Positions 1,897 through 59,599 of a DNA stretch of 64,000 nt are shown here, one piece after another. Source of the stretch: Bacillota bacterium (GTDB taxonomy: Bacteria > Bacillota > Desulfotomaculia > Desulfotomaculales > JBFMEU01); assembly GCA_040753155.1 (NCBI GenBank), contig JBFMEU010000003.1, forward strand, positions 5,045 to 69,044, written 5' to 3'. The notes beneath the pieces were generated by a model. The model did not search any database. It had not been told where the DNA came from and worked only from the letters and a program-made list of their open reading frames with translations. Position numbers and translations under genes: made by a program. Within the stretch, counting starts at the first letter, position 1. Every line of letters begins with the position of its first letter.

Positions 1897-2029
1897 TTGA
1901 ACGAGACTTCATTCAGAGGGGGATTCAACCCCCTCTGAATGTTAGCCGAGTCCATACTGGACTTAACCGCCCTTTGAAACCCGCCGCCTACAGAGGCGGG
2001 GGTCTTAGGGCGGATTAGTTCAGTGATAA
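1897..2029 (+). repeat. Family A structured repeat, copy A2 (reference copy)
   Basis: 133 nt. Hairpin 1910-1941 has a 13-bp stem. Hairpin 1949-1963 pairs AGTCCA/TGGACT. Hairpin 1980-2000 pairs CCCGCC/GGCGGG and is enclosed by AACCGCCCT/AGGGCGG(A)TT (1965-2016). The closing pair is TGAAC/GTTCA (1898-1902 / 2018-2022). Confidence 0.9.
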
Positions 2030-2393
2030 AGCGTATCCTGACAGAATAATCTAATAAACATTGTGACTATAAATTAAATTTTCGACACTCTGGTATGATC
2101 TCCTTTTGAACAATCTTTTAAAACATACCACCGGAATCAAGATCCCAGATCTTTTTGTGGAAACAACCGGTAATTTAAAGGATTTTCTTAATTCTTCACG
2201 AAATTTAAGCTAGAAACAAAGCGCCGGAAGCCCGAACCCTGTGAACATACAGCCCGGCAAAAGGCTTTACAGCAATGACCAGGACGTCAGCCCATGGGTC
2301 ATTTTCTTTTAAGACATTTTTAAAAGCTAAATTGGGAATTATTTATTTAACTGCCCTTAACTGACAGTAAATTTGACTGCCTGGAAGGAATGA

Positions 2394-3164
2394 TTGATGT
2401 TGTTGGATCCTATTGCTTTTGAAATTGGCCCGGTTACCATCAGCTGGTACGGTATTATCTTGTCCTCTGCATTTTTAGCAGGTATACTGCTGGCCTATTT
2501 CCGGGCGGGACAAAACGGAGTTAACCCGGACCATATCATTACCATGGTTACCCTGATTATTCCCGCTGCCATAATTGGGGCCCGGGTTTATTATGTGGCC
2601 TTTGAGTGGGAGAACTATGCCGCCAACCCCCTTGACGCGCTGGCCATCTGGCATGGCGGACTGGCCATCCACGGCGGCCTTATCGGCGGCGTACTGGCAG
2701 GTCTCTGGTATGTGCGCAGGAATAACCTGCACTTATGGCTGGTGGCTGATATCGTTGCCCCCAGCCTGATCCTGGGCCAGGCCATCGGGCGCTGGGGCAA
2801 CTTCATTAACCAGGAGGCCCATGGAGGTTCTGTCAGCTATGAATTCATCAGCCACTTCCCCCGCTTCATCCAGGAACAGATGTATATAGCCGGCCAGTAC
2901 GTACATCCCACTTTTTTGTATGAGTCAGCCTGGAACCTGGCAGTTTTTGCAGTGCTCATCTGGCGCTGGCCCCGCAAACGTTTTCACGGTGAAATCGCCA
3001 TGTTCTACCTGATCCTGTATTCCCTGGGCCGCTTTTTTATTGAAGGCTTGCGCACCGATAGCTTGATGGCGGGAGAGTTGCGGGTAGCCCAGCTGGTCAG
3101 CCTGTTGATGATTGCCGCCGGGCTGACAGGCCTTTATTTTCTGGGCCGGCGTAAATTCATTTAA
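2394..3164 (+). CDS. lgt: prolipoprotein diacylglyceryl transferase
   Basis: 256-aa polytopic membrane ORF with Lgt signatures ISWYGIIL and GRWGNFINQEAHG. Confidence 0.95.
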   Translation: MMLLDPIAFEIGPVTISWYGIILSSAFLAGILLAYFRAGQNGVNPDHIITMVTLIIPAAIIGARVYYVAFEWENYAANPLDALAIWHGGLAIHGGLIGGVLAGLWYVRRNNLHLWLVADIVAPSLILGQAIGRWGNFINQEAHGGSVSYEFISHFPRFIQEQMYIAGQYVHPTFLYESAWNLAVFAVLIWRWPRKRFHGEIAMFYLILYSLGRFFIEGLRTDSLMAGELRVAQLVSLLMIAAGLTGLYFLGRRKFI

Positions 3165-3211: not shown

Positions 3212-5545
3212 ATGGTAAGCTCAAAATATGTAGATTTGCGGATTTTTATGTCGGGAGGAAGAATCGTGTCCAAAACCCCCGGGGGATCTTTAAAATATGA
3301 AGTGCTTGGCTTAGCCATCATGACCCTGGCCGTACTGGGGATGGCCAGCTTATTGTTTGCCTCCGTGGGGGCCTTCGGCAACTTAATTAACCGGTTATTA
3401 CTGGCAGTGGCCGGAGATGGCCGCTTTCTACTGCCACCACTTCTATTTTTATTGGGTCTCAGGCTCTTACGACAGCGGAGCGCTACCAGCCTGCCTGTTC
3501 GCACCTACGGTCTGCTGGTCATATTTTTTAACTTGCTGATCTTCTTACACATGGGCATAACCCTTGAAATGGCCTGGGAAACAGGATTTCAGGGCCAGGG
3601 TGGCGGCATACTGGGGGCCGCCGGCAGCCTGATCTTGCGCCATGCCTTTGGCCAAGTGGGCACTTATATAATTCTAGCCTCCCTGACCATGTTAAGCTTA
3701 CTGCTCCTCACCGGTGTATCCATGGAAGAACTCGCCAGAGGCGCCTGGAGGCGCACTAAAATGACTGCTGCCACTACAGCCAGGAGTCTAACCGATTTTC
3801 TGTTTGAGGAAGTTGAGGACGAGCCTGAAGACAAGGACAAAAAATCCCCGGCTAAAAAAAAGCCCCGGGAGCAGGATACGGCTGGTGGCCGGGACCACCC
3901 GCCTGTTAATACCACCGACGGTGCAAACAAAGCCGACTGCGTCACCAGTACCGGCCAGGAATTGGAGTCCAAATCCCCCGCCGGAGAAATGGTGAGCCCG
4001 GCCATACCCTTTGGTGGCACATCCTTTGTCCTGCCCCCGACGAGCCTGCTGGCCTCCCCTAAACCCAAGGGTTCAGGGCTCCATTCGGAACAGGATATTC
4101 AGGACCGGATCCATGTACTGGAACAAACACTGGAAAATTTCGGTATCAAGGTTAAGGTGCTGGAAGTTTCCATAGGCCCGGCCATAACCAGGTATGAAAT
4201 CCAACCCCCCCCGGGGATCAAGGTCAGCCGGATTGTAGGTCTGGCTGATGATATTGCTCTGGGCATGGCAACTTCAGGTGTTCGCATTGAGGCCCCAATA
4301 CCCGGCAAGGCAGCGGTGGGCATAGAAGTGCCAAACCAATCTATTAACACCGTTCCCTTAAGAGAATTACTTGAGTCGGATGTCTTTATTAATCACCCGT
4401 CCAGACTGACCGTAGCTCTGGGTAAGGACATTGCCGGGACGCCGGTACTGGCTGACCTGGCCCGTATGCCCCACTTACTAGTGGCGGGCGCCACTGGCTC
4501 GGGGAAAAGCGTGTGTGTAAACACAATAATTTGCAGCATTCTATTTAAAGCCACCCCGGATGAAGTAAAATTCCTGATGATCGACCCCAAAATGGTCGAG
4601 CTTACCACTTATAACGGCATTCCCCACCTGGTAAGCCCGGTGGTTACCGATCCTAGAAAGGCTGCCGGGACCCTGCGCTGGGCGGTGCGGGAAATGGAGT
4701 CCCGTTACGAGCTTTTTGCCGCCGCAGGGGTGCGGGACATCACCAGGTATAATAACCTGTGCCTGGAGGAGACTGCCAGGCGGCAAAAGAGTATGCTCCC
4801 CAGAAATTCGGACGCCGCTCAAAGCCTGGCCAGGGCCGAACTTGCAGAGCCTGACCAGGTCAGACCGCTGCCCCTGATTGCTGTAATCATTGACGAACTG
4901 GCCGACTTGATGATGGTTGCGCCGGCGGATGTGGAAGATGCCATTTGCCGCCTGGCGCAAATGGCCAGGGCAGCAGGAATCCACCTGCTGGTAGCTACTC
5001 AGCGCCCGTCTGTGGATGTAATAACCGGGCTCATTAAAGCCAATATACCTTCCCGGATATCCTTTGCCGTGTCAAGCCAAACCGACTCCAGAACAATCAT
5101 TGACATGGGCGGGGCCGAGAAACTTTTAGGCAAAGGGGACATGTTGTTCTTTCCTGTGGGAGCGCCCAAACCACAGCGGGTGCAAGGGGCCTTTCTGTCA
5201 GATAAGGAAGTGGAAACACTGGTGGACTTCCTGAAGGATCAGGCCAGACCAACCTATAATGAAGAGGTGCTTAAGGACACACCACTGGAGGAACAGTGGA
5301 GTGACCAGGAAAACGACGACCTTCTCCCCCAGGCCGCCCTGCTGTTTATTGAAAGTGGCGCCGCCTCCATTTCCATGCTCCAAAGGCGTCTGCACATTGG
5401 CTACTCAAGGGCTGCCAGGCTGGTGGACCTGATGGAAAGAAGGGGCATTGTGGGTGGTTTTGAGGGCAGTAAGCCCCGGGCCGTGCTAATGACCATGGAA
5501 CAATATCAGCAGGCTTTCACCGAGGCTGATAACCGGGCCAGTTAG
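3212..5545 (+). CDS. ftsK: DNA translocase FtsK/SpoIIIE
   Basis: N-terminal TM segments, a proline/charge-rich linker, Walker A GATGSGKS, and a C-terminal gamma (winged-helix) domain MLQRRLHIGYSRAARLVD. The more likely start is GTG at 3266, preceded by GGGAGGA. Confidence 0.95.
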   Translation: MVSSKYVDLRIFMSGGRIVSKTPGGSLKYEVLGLAIMTLAVLGMASLLFASVGAFGNLINRLLLAVAGDGRFLLPPLLFLLGLRLLRQRSATSLPVRTYGLLVIFFNLLIFLHMGITLEMAWETGFQGQGGGILGAAGSLILRHAFGQVGTYIILASLTMLSLLLLTGVSMEELARGAWRRTKMTAATTARSLTDFLFEEVEDEPEDKDKKSPAKKKPREQDTAGGRDHPPVNTTDGANKADCVTSTGQELESKSPAGEMVSPAIPFGGTSFVLPPTSLLASPKPKGSGLHSEQDIQDRIHVLEQTLENFGIKVKVLEVSIGPAITRYEIQPPPGIKVSRIVGLADDIALGMATSGVRIEAPIPGKAAVGIEVPNQSINTVPLRELLESDVFINHPSRLTVALGKDIAGTPVLADLARMPHLLVAGATGSGKSVCVNTIICSILFKATPDEVKFLMIDPKMVELTTYNGIPHLVSPVVTDPRKAAGTLRWAVREMESRYELFAAAGVRDITRYNNLCLEETARRQKSMLPRNSDAAQSLARAELAEPDQVRPLPLIAVIIDELADLMMVAPADVEDAICRLAQMARAAGIHLLVATQRPSVDVITGLIKANIPSRISFAVSSQTDSRTIIDMGGAEKLLGKGDMLFFPVGAPKPQRVQGAFLSDKEVETLVDFLKDQARPTYNEEVLKDTPLEEQWSDQENDDLLPQAALLFIESGAASISMLQRRLHIGYSRAARLVDLMERRGIVGGFEGSKPRAVLMTMEQYQQAFTEADNRAS

Positions 5546-5590: not shown

Positions 5591-5763
5591 TATCTTCGCA
5601 CAGCCTGTAAGACCCCGCCCTCTTAGGTCGGGGTCTTACAGGCTGCAAACTCGAAATAAGTGCGACTAAGGTTTAGCGGTCAGGGGACACACCTCCTTCG
5701 GAGGAATGTCCCCAACGTATGGGTTAAAACCCCACCTGAACCAAGTCTTCTTTATCTTCGCAC
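5591..5763 (+). repeat. Family B structured repeat, copy B1 (with a 37-nt hairpin insert and a restart of the 5' end)
   Basis: Shares its core with 12203-12332 and 15464-15692. It has an extra perfect hairpin AGCCTGTAAGACCCCG/CGGGGTCTTACAGGCT. After the terminal TTTAT the first 8 nt (CTTCGCAC) repeat. Confidence 0.85.
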
Positions 5764-6263: not shown

Positions 6264-7418
6264 TTAAACAACTCCCTTATCCCTGAAACTATTAATTTCG
6301 TCAGCCTGGTAGCCCAGCCATTCCAATATCTCCATGGTATGCTGTCCCAGCACCGGCGGCGGAGTGGCGCCAACAGGTACCACGTCCCCCTGCAGCGGGT
6401 TACGCACCTGCGTCAGCAGACCTTCCACCGGATGCATAATATCCAGGGCCAGTTTTCGCCCGGCGGCATAATCACCGGACAACACCTCATCCATTTCTTC
6501 CACAGGTGAAAGGCAGCAGTCCACCGCACCGGCAAATTCAGCCCACTGCTCTTTCGTTCTTGATTTAAAAATTTCCTTGACAGCTTCAAAAACAGGATCA
6601 CCTTCAACAGCCAACGCCATAAAGCCCGGTAATAAATCCTCCCGGCCAAGGCCCAGGCAAAACGCCTGCCAAAATTTATCCTCCAGGGCTCCCAGAGCAA
6701 CATATTTATTGTCTGCCGTAAGATAAATGTTATAGCGCACCAGGGCGCCGGACAGCATATTATCATTCCTGCGCCCCGTTGCCAGTTGGTATGCTATTGG
6801 CATCAAGGAAATTGATACTAGCCCGTCCGTCATAGCCGCATCAATGTAAGATCCTTTACCCTCCCGCTGCTGGCGCCACAGACCGGACAGAACGCCGATA
6901 ACCGCATACAGGGCACCTGTAAGGTCCGCCATCTGAATTCCGGGCATGACCGGGGCGCCGCCCCGCTGCCTGTTCACCGAAAGCACCCCGCTGGTGGCCA
7001 GGTAATTGATGTCGTGGCCGGCCCGCTGCCGGTAGTGCCCGGTTTGGCCGTAACCGGTAAGGGAACAGTAAACAATGCCGGAGTTTATTTCCTTTACCGC
7101 CTCATAACCAATGCCCAGGGCATCGACCACCCCGGGGCGAAAGCTCTCGATTATCACATCTGAAGAACCGGCCAGCCGGAAAAATATTTCCCTTCCCTCA
7201 GCGGACTTAAGATTAAGGGTGACACTCTTTTTATTACGGTTTGCAGCCAGAAAAAAGGCGCTATCCTTTTTAACCAGGGGTATAAATTCCCGCATGTAGT
7301 CCCCCCGGCCAGGCTCCTCTATTTTTATTACCTCCGCCCCCATATCACCCAGCAGCATGGTGGCGTACGGTCCCGGAAGCAATCTGGACAAGTCCAGTAC
7401 CCTAACCCCTTTTAACAT
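6264..7418 (-). CDS. family III CoA-transferase (CaiB/BaiF / alpha-methylacyl-CoA racemase-like)
   Basis: Begins MLKGVRVLDLSRLLPGPYATMLLGDMGAEVIKIE, the typical family N-terminus. The ORF-track start at 7487 adds 23 unlikely residues; ATG 7418 is preferred. Confidence 0.85.
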   Translation of the reverse strand: MLKGVRVLDLSRLLPGPYATMLLGDMGAEVIKIEEPGRGDYMREFIPLVKKDSAFFLAANRNKKSVTLNLKSAEGREIFFRLAGSSDVIIESFRPGVVDALGIGYEAVKEINSGIVYCSLTGYGQTGHYRQRAGHDINYLATSGVLSVNRQRGGAPVMPGIQMADLTGALYAVIGVLSGLWRQQREGKGSYIDAAMTDGLVSISLMPIAYQLATGRRNDNMLSGALVRYNIYLTADNKYVALGALEDKFWQAFCLGLGREDLLPGFMALAVEGDPVFEAVKEIFKSRTKEQWAEFAGAVDCCLSPVEEMDEVLSGDYAAGRKLALDIMHPVEGLLTQVRNPLQGDVVPVGATPPPVLGQHTMEILEWLGYQADEINSFRDKGVV

Positions 7419-7974: not shown

Positions 7975-8353
7975 AAAAGCACGGCCGTAAGCGAGATTCT
8001 GTTTCGGTAGTCATCCATCTAGAAAATCCCGGCTTTCACCGGCATCTCCTCCCCTTTAACGGGGTGCCCCTACCCGCAGCAAAGCTGCCTATTTGGGTTG
8101 CACGCTGGCGGAGTTTACCCTTGCACTCACCGGTCACCCGGTGAAATGGTTTCTGTGGCACTTTATGGCTACTGGAAACTCCCAAGAGCCTCTTTGGCCG
8201 TCGTCAGGTCGCCCTGCCCCGGCTTGCGCCGGGCACCATTTTACACCGGCTTGTAAAGCCGCTGTGCGTGTCTCGACTTTCCTCTGCCTGCCGTTAACCA
8301 GCCCTGCAAAAAGCGCCTGATTCCAGCAAACAGCGACTACCCACCGTACTTTT
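7975..8353 (-). ncRNA. rnpB: RNase P RNA, bacterial type A
   Basis: The reverse complement contains the universal blocks AGAGGAAAGUC (P4 5' strand), GGUAAACUCCGCC, CAAAUAGG and CUAGAUGGAUGACUACCGAAACAGAAUCUCGCUUA. P2 pairs GGUAGUC/GACUACC. P1 pairs AAAAGUACGGU/GCCGUGCUUUU. The ends are approximate to about 5 nt. Confidence 0.9.
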
Positions 8354-10715: not shown

Positions 10716-10742
10716 TTGAACGAGACTTCATTCAGAGGGGGG
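10716..10742 (+). repeat. Family A fragment (5' 27 nt only), copy A3
   Basis: TTGAACGAGACTTCATTCAGAGGGGGG matches the A consensus and then diverges. Confidence 0.7.
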
Positions 10743-11683: not shown

Positions 11684-11758
<75 letters not shown>

Positions 11759-11761
11759 TTA

Positions 11762-11837
11762 TGGTGACCCCTACGGGATTCGAACCCGTGTTACCGCCGT
11801 GAAAGGGCGGTGTCTTAGACCGCTTGACCAAGGGGCC
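11762..11837 (-). tRNA. tRNA-Glu (anticodon TTC), CCA encoded
   Basis: Reverse complement GGCCCCTTGGTCAAGCGGTCTAAGACACCGCCCTTTCACGGCGG...GGGGTCACCA. The anticodon loop is CTTTCAC. Confidence 0.95.
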
Positions 11838-11949
11838 TCTTATTAGAGGTTGGAGATTTGAGATTGGAAGTTGGATTTTTTATTGGAATTCGCCAGGGCG
11901 AATTCCTTCTAATCTAACCTCTAGCTTCCAACTTCAAACTTCCAGTGAG

Positions 11950-12024
11950 TGGTGGGCCCACCAGGATTCGAACCTGGAGCCAGCCGGTTATGAGCCGGAT
12001 GCTCTACCGTTGAGCTATGGGCCC
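11950..12024 (-). tRNA. tRNA with CAT anticodon (elongator Met, or possibly the Ile2/lysidine type), CCA encoded
   Basis: Reverse complement GGGCCCATAGCTCAACGGTAGAGCATCCGGCTCATAACCGGC...TGGGCCCACCA. The anticodon loop is CTCATAA. It lacks the three G-C pairs typical of initiator tRNA. Confidence 0.9.
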
Positions 12025-12028
12025 ATAT

Positions 12029-12103
12029 TGGCTCCTCGAGTAGGATTCGAACCTACAACCTACCGGTTAACAGCCGGTTGCTCTACCGTTGAGCTATCGA
12101 GGA
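12029..12103 (-). tRNA. tRNA-Asn (anticodon GTT), CCA encoded
   Basis: Reverse complement TCCTCGATAGCTCAACGGTAGAGCAACCGGCTGTTAACCGGTAGGTTGTAGGTTCGAATCCTACTCGAGGAGCCA. Confidence 0.95.
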
Positions 12104-12202: not shown

Positions 12203-12332
12203 TTTATCTTCGCACAGCCTGTAAACTCGAAATAAGTGCGACCAAGGTTTAGCGGTCAGGGGACACATCTCCTTCGGAGGAATGTCCCCAACGTATGGGT
12301 TAAAACCCCACCTGAACCTTGGTCTTCTTTAT
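12203..12332 (+). repeat. Family B structured repeat, copy B2 (minimal 130-nt form)
   Basis: Layout is TTTAT-CTTCGCACAGCCTGTAA..GTGCGA..ACCAAGGTT[..GGGGACA-cATCTCC-TTC-GGAGGAa-TGTCCCC..]AACCTTGGT-CTTC-TTTAT, with nested stems visible by eye. Confidence 0.85.
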
Positions 12333-12357
12333 TATAACAGAAATGACTAAATTGAAC

Positions 12358-15463: not shown

Positions 15464-15692
15464 TTTATCTTCGCACAGCCTGTAAGACCCCGCCCTCGCA
15501 TAAGGAAAGGGGACACACCTGCTGAAGCTTGGGTATTTCTCTGGGGACAGGAATGTCCCTAACTAATGGGATTAACAGGCTGTAAACTCGAAATAAGTGC
15601 TACTAAGGTTTAGCGGATAGGGGACACACCTCCTTCGGAGGAATGTCCCCAACGTATGGGTTAAAACCCCACCTGAACCAAGTCTTCTTTAT
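15464..15692 (+). repeat. Family B structured repeat, copy B3 (carries a ~100-nt insert that is itself a degenerate B-core module)
   Basis: Same termini and core as B2. The insert follows CAGCCTGTAA, is closed by AGCCTGT../..ACAGGCT, and contains GGGGACACACCTG...GGAATGTCCC. Confidence 0.85.
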
Positions 15693-15723
15693 CATTGCCA
15701 TTATCTGTAAGCAATAAACCATT

Positions 15724-25162: not shown

Positions 25163-25368
25163 GTTACTATTCAGGTATTCAGAATTCAGGAGTCAGGAGT
25201 CAGAATGCCCTGAGAATATGCTTCCAGCAATTAGAGAAGTTTTGTTTCGTAAATATCACCGTATCCAAGATCCTTCGTAAGTATCAAGTAATATCAGCAT
25301 TCTTCAACAGAACCTTGGTTTTCTCATTCTGACTTCTGACTTCTGGCTCCTGACTCCTGAGTAGTTAT
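25163..25368 (+). mobile_element. Family C non-autonomous element C2 (internally deleted four-helix-bundle gene), TSD ATTTTTTA
   Basis: Left end is GTTACTATTCAGG..TCAGGAGTCAGGAGTCAGAAT. Right end is ATTCTGACTTCTGAC..CTCCTGAGTAGTTAT. An 8-bp direct repeat sits at 25155-25162 and 25369-25376. On the minus strand the interior reads ...GSVEEC*YYLILTKDLGYGDIYETKLL. Confidence 0.9.
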
Positions 25369-25405
25369 ATTTTTTATTTTAATTGATATATCTCTATGTC
25401 TGGCT

Positions 25406-28406: not shown

Positions 28407-28708
28407 TATATTCAGTGAAACCGGTGTTAAGGCACGGCATTATCATCGCTCACTCCAGTGCTCCGCGCCGACAGCACCTCGGCTTGTTTCGGACCGGACT
28501 AGCGACGCTGCAAAGGCGGCGATTGATTTATCTTCGGAAGGTGCCTGCTCTCCTCAAAGCACCTTGTTCTCAAACCCGTCGCCTTAGCAGTCCGCTGGTT
28601 TCGCGCCGCAGTCCGGTTACCCTCACTGCGCCGGGTGCTGTTACCGGCGCTCCGCAAGTCGTTCGCTAACGATAATGCCGTGCCTCCACCTGGTTTGCTG
28701 AATACTTA
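28407..28708 (+). mobile_element. Family D ~300-bp TIR element, copy D1 (inside the glyQS leader)
   Basis: TIRs are TTCAGTGAAACCGGTGTTAAGGCACGGCATTATC / GATAATGCCGTGCCTCCACCTGGTTTGCTGAA, flanked by TA...TA. About 90 percent identical to D2 and D3 by eye. Confidence 0.85.
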
Positions 28709-28736
28709 CTGGTTATTTACCCTGCGCGGCCCAAAC

Positions 28737-31274: not shown

Positions 31275-31406
31275 TTGAACGAGACTTCATTCAGAGTGGG
31301 ATTCAACCCCCTCTGAATGTTAGCCGAGTCCATACTGGACTTAACCGCCCTTTGAAACCCGCCGCCTACAGAGGCGGGGTCTTAGGGTGGATTAGTTCAG
31401 TGGTAA
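31275..31406 (+). repeat. Family A structured repeat, copy A4
   Basis: 132 nt with 4-5 differences from A2. It sits directly against the truncated C3 element. Confidence 0.9.
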
Positions 31407-31470
31407 ATCTTCAAATGTTTTCGCTGGTTTTTTCATTCTGACTCCTGACCCCTGACTCCTGAGTAGTTGC
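31407..31470 (+). repeat. Family C element, right-hand portion (C3), truncated at its junction with A4
   Basis: ATCTTCAAATGTTTTCGCTGGTTTTTTCATTCTGACTCCTGACCCCTGACTCCTGAGTAGTTGC aligns with the right part of C4. Confidence 0.8.
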
Positions 31471-31563
31471 GAATACTTAGCAGTAAAGGGAGGCACGCAG
31501 TCCTCCCTTCCATTTTATCACGTTTAGAATCAGGGGCAACTGCCCTGATAATGACCGCACCCT

Positions 31564-32949: not shown

Positions 32950-33082
32950 TTGAACGAGACTTCATTCAGAGGGGGATTCAACCCCCTCTGAATGTTAGCC
33001 GAGTCCATACTGGACTTAACCGCCCTTTGAAACCCGCCGCCTACAGAGGCGGGGGTCTTAGGGCGGATTAGTTCAGTGATAA
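32950..33082 (+). repeat. Family A structured repeat, copy A5 (in the mgtE 5' UTR region)
   Basis: 133 nt, essentially identical to A2. It ends 30 nt upstream of the mgtE ATG. Confidence 0.9.
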
Positions 33083-33263
33083 ATGGCGCCGCCGGACCGC
33101 CCCTGTGAGTTATACAATTATACGCGCGACTACTTGGGCCCGCGTCCACAACACCACCTCCATTCGACAATACGGTGATATTTACAATCACCCTAACAAA
33201 TTTACCAATAAACCACCCTTTGTGTCAAGTTGTCAAGGAAACGGGCACATCAGGACCCGGTGT

Positions 33264-34833: not shown

Positions 34834-35130
34834 TATTCAGTGAAACCGGTGTTAAGGCACGGCGTTATCACCGCTCACTCCAGTGCTCCGCGCCGGCAGC
34901 GCCCCGGCTTGTTTCGGACCGGACTAGCGGCGCTGCAAAGGCGGCGATAGATTTGTAATGGAAGGCGCCTGCTCTCATCAAAGCACCTTGTTCTCAAACC
35001 CGTCGCCTTAGTAGTCCGCTGGTTTCGCGCCGCAGTCCGGTTACCCTCACTGCGCCGGGTGCTGTTACCGGCGCTCCGCAAGTCGTTCGCTAACGATAAC
35101 GCCGTGCCTCCACCTGGTTTACTGAATACT
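34834..35130 (+). mobile_element. Family D TIR element, copy D2 (overlaps the 3' end of dgkA)
   Basis: Same TIRs as D1 with TA flanks. The last codons of dgkA and its TAA stop lie in the element end. Confidence 0.85.
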
Positions 35131-35502
35131 TACAAGTCGCTGCAGGTGCGGGCCAAAGATCAGCGCCCCGGCCACCACAGCATGCAGAGCGGCCAGCAGT
35201 ACGGCCCCGGCAGCTATATCCTTGGCCCGCCCGGCCAGGGGGTTTGGTCCCGGAGAAACCAGGTCCACCACTGTTTCCACGGCGGTATTCAGCGCCTCGG
35301 CCACCAGGACCAGAAATATGGCCAGGAGTAAAAAAAGCCACTCCTCCCTGCTCAGTTCCAGCAAGCCGGCCAGCGCCAGCACAGCAGCCGTTGCCAGCAG
35401 GTGAATTTTCATGTTGCGCTGGGTAGTCACCGTCCTGGCCAGGCCGGATCCCGCCCGGTAAAAAGCCTTCCAAAAGTTTCCCCGCCACTCCACGCCCGGC
35501 AT
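35119..35502 (-). CDS. dgkA: diacylglycerol/undecaprenol kinase
   Basis: 127 aa, three TM helices, motif EALNTAVE. In the conserved ybeY-dgkA-cdd order. Confidence 0.9.
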   Translation of the reverse strand: MPGVEWRGNFWKAFYRAGSGLARTVTTQRNMKIHLLATAAVLALAGLLELSREEWLFLLLAIFLVLVAEALNTAVETVVDLVSPGPNPLAGRAKDIAAGAVLLAALHAVVAGALIFGPHLQRLVSIQ

Positions 35503-46198: not shown

Positions 46199-46377
46199 GT
46201 TACTATTCAGGTATTCAGAATGGACCGTATAGCTCATACTTCGGAAACGCCATAGATAAACGATAAATCGCAAGTACGAACAGGTGCGCCTTCTGCCATA
46301 CCAGTAATCTTCAAACGCTTTCGCTGGTTTTCTCATTCTGACTCCTGACTTCTGACTCCTGACTCCTGAGTAGTTAC
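46199..46377 (+). mobile_element. Family C non-autonomous element C4 (retains the N-terminal part of the four-helix-bundle gene), TSD ATCTTTTT
   Basis: An 8-bp direct repeat sits at 46191-46198 and 46378-46385. On the minus strand the interior reads ATGAGAAAACCAGCGAAAGCGTTTGAAGA(-1 nt)..LLVWQKAHLFVLAIYRLSMAFPKYELYG. Confidence 0.9.
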
Positions 46378-46390
46378 ATCTTTTTTATAA

Positions 46391-48548: not shown

Positions 48549-48659
48549 GTTACTATTCAGGTATTCAGAATTCAGGATTCAGAATGGACCTGTTTTCGCT
48601 GGTTTTCTCATTCTGACTTCTGACTCCTGACTTCTGACTCCTGACTTCTGAGTAGTTAC
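48549..48659 (+). mobile_element. Family C miniature element C5 (111 bp), TSD GTTCAAAA
   Basis: An 8-bp direct repeat sits at 48541-48548 and 48660-48667. Both TIRs are present, with almost no interior. Confidence 0.9.
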
Positions 48660-48804: not shown

Positions 48805-49102
48805 ATTATTCAGTGGAACCAGTGTTAAGGCACAGCGTTATCACCGCTCACTCCAGTGCTCCGCGCCGACAACACCACGGCTTGTTTCGGACCGGACTAG
48901 CGGCGCTGCAAAGGCGGTGATAGATTTATACTGGAAGGCGCCTGCTCTCCTCAAAACACCTTGTTCTCAAACCCGTCGCCTTACTAGTCCGCTGGTTTCG
49001 CGCCGCAGTCCGGTTACCCTCACTGCGCCGGGTGCTGTTACCGGCGCTCCGCAAGTCGTTCGCTAACGATAACGCCGTGCCTCCACCTGGTTTACTGAAT
49101 GT
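48805..49102 (+). mobile_element. Family D TIR element, copy D3 (5 nt downstream of the dnaK stop)
   Basis: Aligns end to end with D1 and D2. Flanks are TA / TG. Confidence 0.85.
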
Positions 49103-49107
49103 TTACC

Positions 49108-58515: not shown

Positions 58516-58571
58516 CTGAATTACGCTGGTTTTCTCATTCTGACTCCTGACTTCTGACTCCTGACTCCTGA
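58516..58571 (+). repeat. Family C right-end remnant (C7) fused to the 3' end of holA
   Basis: CTGAATTACGCTGGTTTTCTCATTCTGACTCCTGACTTCTGACTCCTGACTCCTGAG. The terminal GTAGTTAC is missing. Confidence 0.8.
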
Positions 58572-59599
58572 GATTGGCAGAGCTTTAAAACCAGCATTTC
58601 CATGGCCGGGTAGAAGTCCAGGCGTCCGGTCTTGGTCTTGACATCAATTTCCCCCAGGCTGTCCAGTAACTCCAAAAGCTGGGCAGTTGTGAAGTTGCGC
58701 CCCTGCTCCTGAACCTTTTTGGCCACAAAGGGGTGCGCCCCCAGCCGGGCGGCCAGTTCGGGCCCGGAACAGCCCTCCCGCCGCAGCTCCCCGGCCAGTA
58801 AAATAAGCCGGAACTGCCTGACCACCATAGCCAGGATGTAGTGGGGCTGCACCCGGCATAAAAGTAAATCCCTGATCCCCTGCAACGCTCTGGCGCACTG
58901 CTTCTCCCCGATGGCGTCAACCACCGCAAAGATACTGTCCTCCAGCTTTTCCGGCACCAGGTCCCTGACCTCCCGGGGCGTGATGGTTGTACCGGGAGCT
59001 GTATAGTTAATCAACTTCTCCATTTCCTGATACAAGCTGATCAGGCTTTTTCCGCGCCGGCGCAGCATTTCTTCCGAGGCCTCCCGCTGGATGCCCCGGC
59101 CCTCCTGCCGGGCCCGCTGCTCCAGCCAGCGGTAGATCTCCGTTGGCTTTAACAGACTGAACTCCACCACCCGGCCCTTAGCGGCCACCAATTTGTAAAT
59201 TTTCCGGCGCTTGTCCACGGCTTCCCCGGCATCGAAAACCAGGCAGGTTTCTGCCGCCGGCTGCTCCAAATAGCTCCGCAGCAAGGCCTCCCCGGGCCTT
59301 TCCCCGGACTCCCCGGCCCCGGCCCTGGCAGGGCGAAACAGCCCGGCCTGGCGGACAATGACCAGGCGCCTGGCGGCCAGCAGCGGCGGAAGGCCGGCAG
59401 CAGCCACAATGGCGTCCGGGCCGGTGCCTTCCCCGTCCAGGAGGTCCAGATTAAATTCCGCTGTGGCCGGTTCCAGCAAGATCTCCTTAAAACGGGCCAG
59501 GGCCTGTTCCCGCAGGTACACCTCAGGGCCGTAAAAGAGATACACGGGGGCAATATTCCCCCGCTTTAAGCTGTCCAGTAAATCAAGATAGTACTTCAA
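58535..59599 (-). CDS. holA: DNA polymerase III delta subunit
   Basis: 354 aa. Starts PVYLFYGPEVYL and is in the conserved position. The last 13 codons (QSQESGVRSQESE) are encoded by repeat C7. Confidence 0.9.
   Translation of the reverse strand: MKYYLDLLDSLKRGNIAPVYLFYGPEVYLREQALARFKEILLEPATAEFNLDLLDGEGTGPDAIVAAAGLPPLLAARRLVIVRQAGLFRPARAGAGESGERPGEALLRSYLEQPAAETCLVFDAGEAVDKRRKIYKLVAAKGRVVEFSLLKPTEIYRWLEQRARQEGRGIQREASEEMLRRRGKSLISLYQEMEKLINYTAPGTTITPREVRDLVPEKLEDSIFAVVDAIGEKQCARALQGIRDLLLCRVQPHYILAMVVRQFRLILLAGELRREGCSGPELAARLGAHPFVAKKVQEQGRNFTTAQLLELLDSLGEIDVKTKTGRLDFYPAMEMLVLKLCQSQESGVRSQESE

Follow-up and report, generated by a model that had tools for sequence, protein, structure and literature searches.

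Family A, a 129-nt interspersed repeat of anaerobic Firmicutes that looks like a protein-less IS200/IS605-type element

Copies of Family A and their surroundings

The window, a 64-kb stretch of DNA from a Bacillota bacterium, contains four full copies of a short interspersed repeat (hereafter Family A) and a 27-nt right-end remnant (10716–10742, − strand) that consists of the 3' arm of hairpin 1 and the tail. Copy 1 (741–869, 129 nt) has its top strand, the one taken to be active, on the + strand, where it reads CACTGAACTAA...GTCTCGTTCAA; its boundaries were placed using the empty site in a related locus (L056), and its target motif (TAM), CTTAT (736–740, +), is located directly 5' of the left end. 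For the other three copies the top strand is on the − strand. These are copy 2 (1897–2025, 129 nt), the copy originally flagged, with a TAM at 2026–2030 (−; ATAAA on the + strand, TTTAT on the top strand), copy 3 (31275–31402, 128 nt), which is decayed and has the flank GTAAA at 31403–31407, corresponding to a TAM of TTTAC, and copy 4 (32950–33078, 129 nt), with a TAM at 33079–33083 (ATAAA on the + strand).

The initial annotation had described four full copies and one fragment at these positions, the full copies differing by a few bases and sharply bounded, and on all of these points it was borne out. A 32-nt hairpin core matched the window four times (≤1 mismatch), compared to zero matches in 100 dinucleotide-preserving shuffles, and the occurrence of the copies is far beyond chance. 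Three copies were 100% identical over the 133-nt arms returned by a repeat finder (737–869, 1897–2029, and 32950–33082), the fourth (31275–31406) was slightly decayed (three substitutions and one deletion), and in the alignment of the copies identity gave way to noise within 1–2 bases at both ends. The short ORFs drawn through the copies are annotation artefacts. Repeats of this kind explain assembly breaks in these organisms. A metagenomic contig (L054, ENA ERZ22146367), apparently from the same strain, is identical to the window for 2.4 kb around copy 4 (32950–33078) apart from three SNPs, all of which are within that copy; either the copies have undergone gene conversion or the assembly may have mixed repeats.

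The genes neighbouring the copies in the window are housekeeping in nature, including an SDR epimerase, lgt, ftsK, recO, a flavoprotein, mgtE, and era. Copy 4 is 39 nt upstream of the mgtE start codon (32910), with its top strand corresponding to the mgtE sense strand, while copies 1 and 2 flank the epimerase gene (866–1774, −). A composite transposon, formed by two perfect inverted copies around the epimerase, was considered and rejected, as the enclosed SDR gene is housekeeping and has the same neighbours in a relative without the copies. A gene for a LapA-domain protein (139 aa) occurs between lgt and the epimerase in L056, the closest relative, and is absent from the window (2030–2394 compared to L056:2344–2763). 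Further, a 17-nt motif, TCCTGAAAATACATTTG, occurs on either side of the epimerase gene (704–727 and 1803–1826), in one case immediately outside and in the other immediately inside the flanking pair of Family A copies.

Several other repeats share the window. Two interspersed families, one of ~300 nt (28410–28709, 34834–35133, and 48807–49106) and one of ~131 nt (5631–5761, 12207–12337, and 15568–15698), each have three copies and do not possess the Family A tail. Arrays of the heptamer TGACTCC/TGACTTC, with the leader TGGTTTTCTCATTC in common, are present at 25316–25375, 31425–31484, 46325–46384, 48600–48659, and 58527–58586, one of them 20 nt from copy 3, and similar CTGAGYY arrays occur in Lutispora loci. 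A scan of the window with Rfam identified a class B RNase P RNA and four clustered tRNAs on the − strand (7983–8348 and 11686–12103), which fits a Firmicute host, and nothing at the Family A copies.

Insertion sites and hairpin structure

Using 61 non-redundant genomic copies, it was possible to define the sequence into which Family A inserts. The 5 nt beyond ...GTTCAGTG follow the consensus W-T-A-A-A (A38/T17, T58, A44, A51, A56), with a WTRA flank in 40/61 copies compared to a background of 2.5% (p = 4e-49), and the opposite flank has no consensus. The left-end flanks of 74 metagenomic matches included TTTAT (n = 27), TTTAA (n = 12), TTCAA (n = 10), and TTGAT (n = 6). The mobile unit is TTGAAC...GTTCAGTG, 129 nt in length, directly 5' of WTAAA (on the other strand, 3' of TTTAW). 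The repeat first annotated as a 133-nt unit is real, but it is 129 nt long, its final ATAA being target DNA that is present in empty sites.

Five comparisons of filled and empty sites, which comprised L056 versus the window at the epimerase stop codon and L036, L011, L089, and L126 versus uninterrupted homologues, revealed no base gained or lost and an ATAAA-like motif that existed beforehand. For the copies that had landed in other repeat families the comparison was with uninterrupted members, and for L126 with a homologous uninterrupted counterpart; at these four further joins ATAAA, AAATA, or TTAAT was already present at the junction. L056, in which the epimerase is 86% identical, possesses neither of the copies that flank the gene in the window. 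At the 3' site of the gene L056 reads CCCG-CTGC-TAA-G and the window reads CCCG-TCA-(129 nt)-A-TAA-G, and epimerase homologues stop ≤3 residues from the same position. This TAA is therefore the original stop codon of the epimerase and belongs to the host. A target site duplication of TTGA/WTRA was rejected because the element-side TTGAAC never varies and the other side varies and is present in empty sites. The retention of an in-frame stop at reconstructed empty sites was discounted as a trivial outcome of the geometry; the frame bias of genes that end at the TGA of the element (9:2:1) and the real empty site were counted instead. A separate repeat family has an uninterrupted member at 46207–46305 of the window, and in L089 this family is split by Family A at ...CCATGG/ATAAA....

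The original description of Family A as lacking TIR, TSD, and ORF is correct, and the classical features of a MITE (TIR and TSD) are absent. The ends (CACTGAACTAA... and ...GTCTCGTTCAA) are not terminal inverted repeats and share just a 5-nt subterminal complementarity, TGAAC/GTTCA. The end motif of the element, TTCAA, differs from the target TTTAT at positions 3 and 5, and approximately one quarter of insertions are mismatched at TAM position −3.

On the top strand the target TTTAT is followed by CACTGAACTAA–hairpin 3–hairpin 2–CTAA–hairpin 1–AAGTCTCG-TTCAA, the reverse complement of the (inactive) strand on which the initial annotation was based. For copy 2, with all features on the − strand, the left terminus CACTGAACTAA (TTAGTTCAGTG on the + strand; 2015–2025) is nearly invariant and leads into hairpin 3 (1964–2017), an imperfect, two-tier left-end hairpin with a conserved bulge and compensatory pairs at 71–118, 75–114, and 89–103. 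A putative left DNA guide, AAGA (TCTT on the + strand; 2003–2006), is directly 5' of the upper stem of hairpin 3. Hairpin 2 (AGTCCA-TAC-TGGACT; 1949–1963) is possibly a second left-end hairpin, and hairpin 1 (1910–1941), at the right end, has 13 bp that are perfect in the window and include one mismatched position in most relatives. The right-end tail AAGTCTCGTTCAA (1897–1909), which ends in the transposon-end motif (TEM), TTCAA (1897–1901), is invariant in all copies.

Amongst 27 distinct copies of standard form, 95% of cells at the proposed pairs were standard, compared to 32–53% with slid partners, and both-sided changes occurred at five pairs in hairpins 1 and 3. Hairpin 1 is fully re-coded in a diverged metagenomic copy (L074). 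In the multi-stem fold proposed by eye, the 13-bp hairpin and the two-tier stem were confirmed, and both are kept by compensatory changes in other genomes. The columns of the 6-bp hairpin and of the closing TGAAC/GTTCA pair are almost invariant, such that this part of the fold is indistinguishable from an alternative in which the left terminus pairs with half of hairpin 2; the rare changes slightly favour the alternative. Overall, the termini are invariant or nearly so, and the interior varies and takes insertions.

Either strand of Family A folds far better than shuffled sequence (z = −9 to −10), both equally well as RNA, and the non-top strand folds well as DNA too. Such folding could be expected of a structured-RNA gene, for example an omega-RNA-like scaffold borne by a PATE (a protein-less IS200/IS605-type derivative) and used by TnpB/IscB in trans, with a top-strand transcript that reads into the right-end flank as guide. 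PATEs have been reported often to carry omega RNAs that are used in trans by TnpB (PMC10055086), the 129-nt unit is within the size range of scaffolds, and a pseudoknot would fit the complementarity between the TTGAA loop of hairpin 1 and the terminal TTCAA, as well as the TTAAA that faces TTTAA in the L074 variant. However, the hairpin-1 loop is replaced in several copies in which the terminus is unchanged, and conservation is highest at the termini, as for transposase sites, rather than at loops or junctions. G-T and A-C mismatches are balanced, with no pairing preference for one RNA strand, a scan of the copies for promoters and terminators found nothing above shuffles, and copies occur in both orientations relative to genes, with some inside ORFs. 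Nor was tnpB or iscB seen near any copy. With Rfam, at gathering and permissive thresholds on both strands, no family matched Family A above noise; there were only hairpin-driven matches below threshold, and those to mir-4599, sbcD (22 bits versus a gathering threshold of 40), and engA (21 versus 46) were rejected as homologues. An RNA gene is consequently considered unlikely, and the suggestions of a guide-RNA-like scaffold or a dispersed ncRNA family made for the flagged copy did not find a counterpart in an Rfam match, a strand asymmetry, or a promoter or terminator. An integron attC site, a group II intron, and a self-cleaving ribozyme were rejected on the basis of misfitting core motifs, the lack of an Rfam match, and the housekeeping context.

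Distribution, variant forms, and effects on genes

Family A extends well beyond the window, with >130 copies identified from Lutispora, Paradesulfitobacterium, a Thermoanaerobacterales MAG, and digester and fermentation metagenomes, where the initial annotation had proposed a search of relatives for copy number. An exact scan with the 5' 22-mer of the originally annotated strand against contigs representing one genome per species recovered at least 53 loci. Hosts among the matches listed were Lutispora saccharofermentans, two Lutispora MAGs, a Clostridiaceae MAG, Paradesulfitobacterium ferrireducens, and the Thermoanaerobacterales MAG. Searching metagenome contigs with the opposite end added 74 further loci from digester and fermentation samples. 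BLASTN against plasmid and phage collections and an exact 22-mer search of IMG/VR gave no Family A match. L. saccharofermentans and P. ferrireducens belong to different orders, and Family A is present in two or more orders of Clostridia and in a third lineage, that of the organism in the window. The latter is a Desulfotomaculum-like Firmicute, the best named homologues of its proteins being only ~60% identical. Between hosts of different orders the copies are 91–96% identical, which, together with the three identical copies in the window, indicates recent transposition and horizontal spread.

This degree of identity also bears on whether Family A could be a host-domesticated repeat of the REP/BIME type, spread by a RAYT/TnpA-REP and with a role in mRNA stability, termination, or the nucleoid. 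RAYTs are relatives of the IS200/IS605 TnpA, and Family A is likewise hairpin-rich, mostly intergenic, high-copy, and mosaic, and co-occurs with other hairpin repeat families. Against this, 91–96% identity across host orders points to horizontal spread and not vertical domestication, and copies are also found inside genes. Family A is a defined 129-nt unit with two different ends, a specific pentanucleotide target, and demonstrable empty sites, as opposed to a single 20–40-nt palindrome with a GTAG-type head. A REP/BIME-like origin is accordingly very unlikely.

The standard form is 128–130 nt with three hairpins, and it is accompanied by short forms of 56 nt (hairpin 1 only) and ~22 nt (no hairpin) and by long forms of 170–220 nt, the loops of which contain a 45-nt hairpin module or other inserts. 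An orthologous site is occupied by the 56-nt form in the Clostridiaceae MAG and by the standard form in L. saccharofermentans, and the 74 nt absent from the former are bounded by the direct repeat GTTAG, on which basis the short forms are read as in-situ deletions. The ultra-short ones match a deletion between CTGAA repeats. The 45-nt module (AAGGTGAATTGCCCCGCAGGGGCAAGAGAAGGTGCCCTGGGGTAC) is found inside Family A at eight loci (L009, L012, L016, L018, L030, L031, L040, and L043) in three positions (the loops of hairpins 2 and 3 and the internal loop of hairpin 3), usually after ATAC and ending in GTAC, and may be a still smaller mobile element that follows the same logic on the opposite strand. 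In addition, the right-end tail AATGAAGYCTCGTTYWA is common to other small elements with different hairpins (L014:~3700–3820; L015:~2860–2960; L017, reverse complement 150–214; and L029:~7240–7317), one of which also has TTTAT/CACT... at its left end. The shared tails suggest a superfamily served by one type of transposase.

Insertion has consequences for the genes concerned. In the window, the present TGA stop codon of the epimerase (866–868, −) is supplied by the terminal TTCAA/TTGAA of copy 1, and the original TAA (−) is within the ATAA at 737–740, where it overlaps the TAM. Including this gene, nine non-redundant genes end at the TGA in the terminal TTGA of the element (frame bias 9:2:1); the target, ATAA or TTGA, contains a stop codon, for which the element substitutes its own. 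In the opposite (top-strand) orientation the element presents an open frame of 43 codons (NTGLTRPKSPASIGGGCQRAVKSSMDSTNIQRGGTPPLNEVSF), and in-frame copies, with the top strand as the sense strand, are present inside a GGDEF-EAL protein (the EAL domain of which is split in two), a CCG/Fe-S oxidoreductase, a MASE3 histidine kinase, and a DUF4430 protein. These copies are at L013:4890–5018, L023:4464–4592, L051:4393–4482, and L007:1227–1313, adding 43 codons in the full-length copies of L013 and L023 and fewer in the shorter copies of L051 and L007. Family A can therefore rewrite gene ends, by supplying TGA, and add 43 codons in frame to real genes.

The in-frame copies resemble Rickettsia palindromic elements, which are hairpin-forming repeats of ~100–150 nt able to occupy protein-coding genes without breaking the frame. 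Family A has a defined target motif and a visible guide logic, whereas a mechanism and target are not known for the Rickettsia elements, and there is no sequence relation between the two. It is a rather improbable extension of the PATE reading that Family A, as an orphan PATE spread horizontally across orders of Clostridia with no cognate autonomous IS, would be more than selfish, its 129-nt top-strand transcript acting in trans as an omega-RNA-like guide scaffold for a distantly encoded TnpB or IscB, or its 43-codon frame forming a tolerated or exapted peptide module of signalling and redox proteins.

Guide/target covariation and likely mode of movement

Watson-Crick complementarity links the final base of the TAM to the base that directly precedes the left hairpin (the upper stem of hairpin 3) on its 5' side. 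Amongst genome loci there were 26 A:T and 12 T:A combinations compared to one discordant case (38/39 concordant), and amongst 65 independent metagenomic sites the corresponding numbers were 36 and 21 compared to one (57/58 A/T cases; Fisher p = 6.6e-15). Copies with the guide AAGA adjoin ...TTAT and copies with the guide AAGT adjoin ...TTAA. As the TAM is host DNA, chosen anew for each insertion, this covariation is not linkage within the element, and, judged from sequence, it is the signature of a putative guide-directed choice of target. In IS608, the left cleavage site and the target are read by a tetranucleotide that adjoins the left hairpin foot on its 5' side, with pairs −4:G2, −3:G1, and −1:G4 and an unpaired A at −2 (PMC3201880). 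Both AAGA:TTAT and AAGT:TTAA fit this pairing rule, and the top-strand A at −2 is the most conserved position of the TAM (58/61), which by analogy would fit the special role of that base in IS608. At the right end, a TEM of TCAA requires GAxT; GACT occurs 2 nt off the foot of hairpin 1, with GGCT in the window, and the bases directly 5' of the stems (CTAA and CAGT) are an incomplete fit to the right-guide rule. Two other small Lutispora elements with the same right-end tail also follow the left-guide rule, with AACA at TTAT and AAAT at TTAA.

The guide base argues against mobilisation by another system that creates neither TIR nor TSD, such as an IS110/IS1111 DEDD transposase, an IS91/Helitron-like rolling-circle enzyme, or a site-specific recombinase, for which the similarity of TTGAA and ATAAA would serve as a crossover core. 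The absence of TIR and TSD, the resemblance of the target to one end of the element, and the failure to find TnpA in the window and 133 loci are all compatible with such a mobiliser. However, the covarying base is 23 nt inside the element, by the hairpin foot and not in a terminal core, the pairing pattern with an unpaired, conserved A at −2 is specifically IS608-like, the TAM/TEM pair matches that of ISGst2, and no recombinase gene of this kind recurs near the copies. Such a mobiliser is therefore considered most improbable.

Family A is interpreted instead as a palindrome-associated transposable element (PATE), a protein-less IS200/IS605-type derivative that moves by single-strand 'peel-and-paste', with a probability of approximately 0.78. 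The hallmarks of IS200/IS605 elements are an absence of TIR and TSD, insertion 3' of a tetra- or penta-nucleotide, subterminal imperfect hairpins, and a right cleavage motif borne by the element (PMC7290912, PMC3201880). The interpretation is based on the target logic, the lack of duplication, the subterminal hairpins, a TEM that is like the target, and the guide covariation, and it agrees with the palindrome-associated IS200/IS605-type reading that the initial annotation listed first, which the TTTAT-like target, hairpins, TEM, and guide/target covariation support. Family A would move as single-stranded DNA, mobilised in trans by a Y1 HUH TnpA encoded elsewhere. TnpA would bind the two hairpins, the left guide AAG[A/T] would pair with the TAM and a right guide with the TEM, and after cleavage the top strand would form a circle and be joined to single-stranded DNA 3' of another TTTAT-like site. 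The short (56-nt) and ultra-short (~22-nt) forms would arise as in-situ deletions between short direct repeats, and the longer forms carry other small hairpin modules nested in their loops. Overall, Family A looks like a new family of a known kind and not a new class of RNA.

Confidence in this interpretation is limited to ~0.8 by the lack of a transposase or parent, the lack of an orientation bias, the differing hairpins, and the poorly placed right-end guide. A tblastn search with an IS200 TnpA query (validated as 100% identical to IS200F) returned no Y1 transposase in the 64-kb window or 133 loci, and all of the copies found via either end (>130) were PATE-sized or truncated, with no autonomous parent amongst them. 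A parent element with tnpA, tnpB, or iscB, which had been suggested as a possible neighbour, was not seen near any copy. No transposase, TnpB, or reverse transcriptase gene recurs beside the copies; the families that do recur there are common paralogues (ABC ATPases, sigma-54 activators, and S-layer proteins). Based on local GC skew, the bias in orientation to the lagging-strand template was 36:26 and not significant (p = 0.25); published IS200/IS605 families are also mixed in orientation (PMC7290912, Table 1). The left and right hairpins of Family A are dissimilar in sequence, unlike those of IS608, and the two hairpins are not identical in all IS200/IS605 members (PMC7290912).

The closest known systems are the PATEs of Haloquadratum walsbyi and the PATE-like elements of Geobacillus stearothermophilus (ISGst; PMC10055086) and Halanaerobium hydrogeniformans (PMC7290912). 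As with these, Family A has no protein gene, TIR, or TSD, possesses subterminal hairpins, inserts 3' of a penta-nucleotide, is multicopy, and is presumably mobilised in trans. In contrast to these, it occurs in several orders of Clostridia, with frequent in-situ deletions, nested hairpin modules, and no cognate IS found. Family A is also much smaller, at 129 nt compared to ~270–600 nt for the examples from Halanaerobium and Haloquadratum. Strings of the Family A sequence were in no paper covered by a full-text literature search.

In its target logic, Family A is closest to ISGst2 and IS608. ISGst2, a member of the IS605 group from G. stearothermophilus, has the TAM TTTAT and the TEM TTCAC, which differ at positions 3 and 5 (PMC10055086). 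Compared by published motifs, Family A shares this TAM and has TTCAA in place of TTCAC as its TEM; both have a Firmicute host and DNA guidance from the ends (putative in Family A, at the left end) that covaries with the TAM, and they differ in that ISGst2 encodes TnpB together with an omega RNA and is served by a cognate tnpA. The right cleavage motif of IS608 (Helicobacter pylori), TCAA, is identical to the last four bases of the Family A TEM, and the two have in common a guide tetranucleotide (putative in Family A) directly 5' of the left hairpin foot, an identical pairing pattern, imperfect bulged hairpins, and possibly a second hairpin in the left end. The distance between cleavage site and hairpin is 19 nt in IS608 and 23 nt in Family A at the left end, and ~10 nt and 9–13 nt, respectively, at the right end. 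IS608 differs in targeting TTAC, in its identical left and right hairpins, and in encoding tnpA and tnpB.

The two guide alleles (A and T), each occurring with its own target allele (TTTAT and TTTAA), amount to a natural guide-swap experiment. Once its cognate transposase is identified, a 129-nt element for which the target would be set by one internal base is a possible minimal substrate for TnpA-based insertion engineering, and Family A adds a compact (129 nt), natural, high-copy family to the single-strand transposons of strictly anaerobic Firmicutes.
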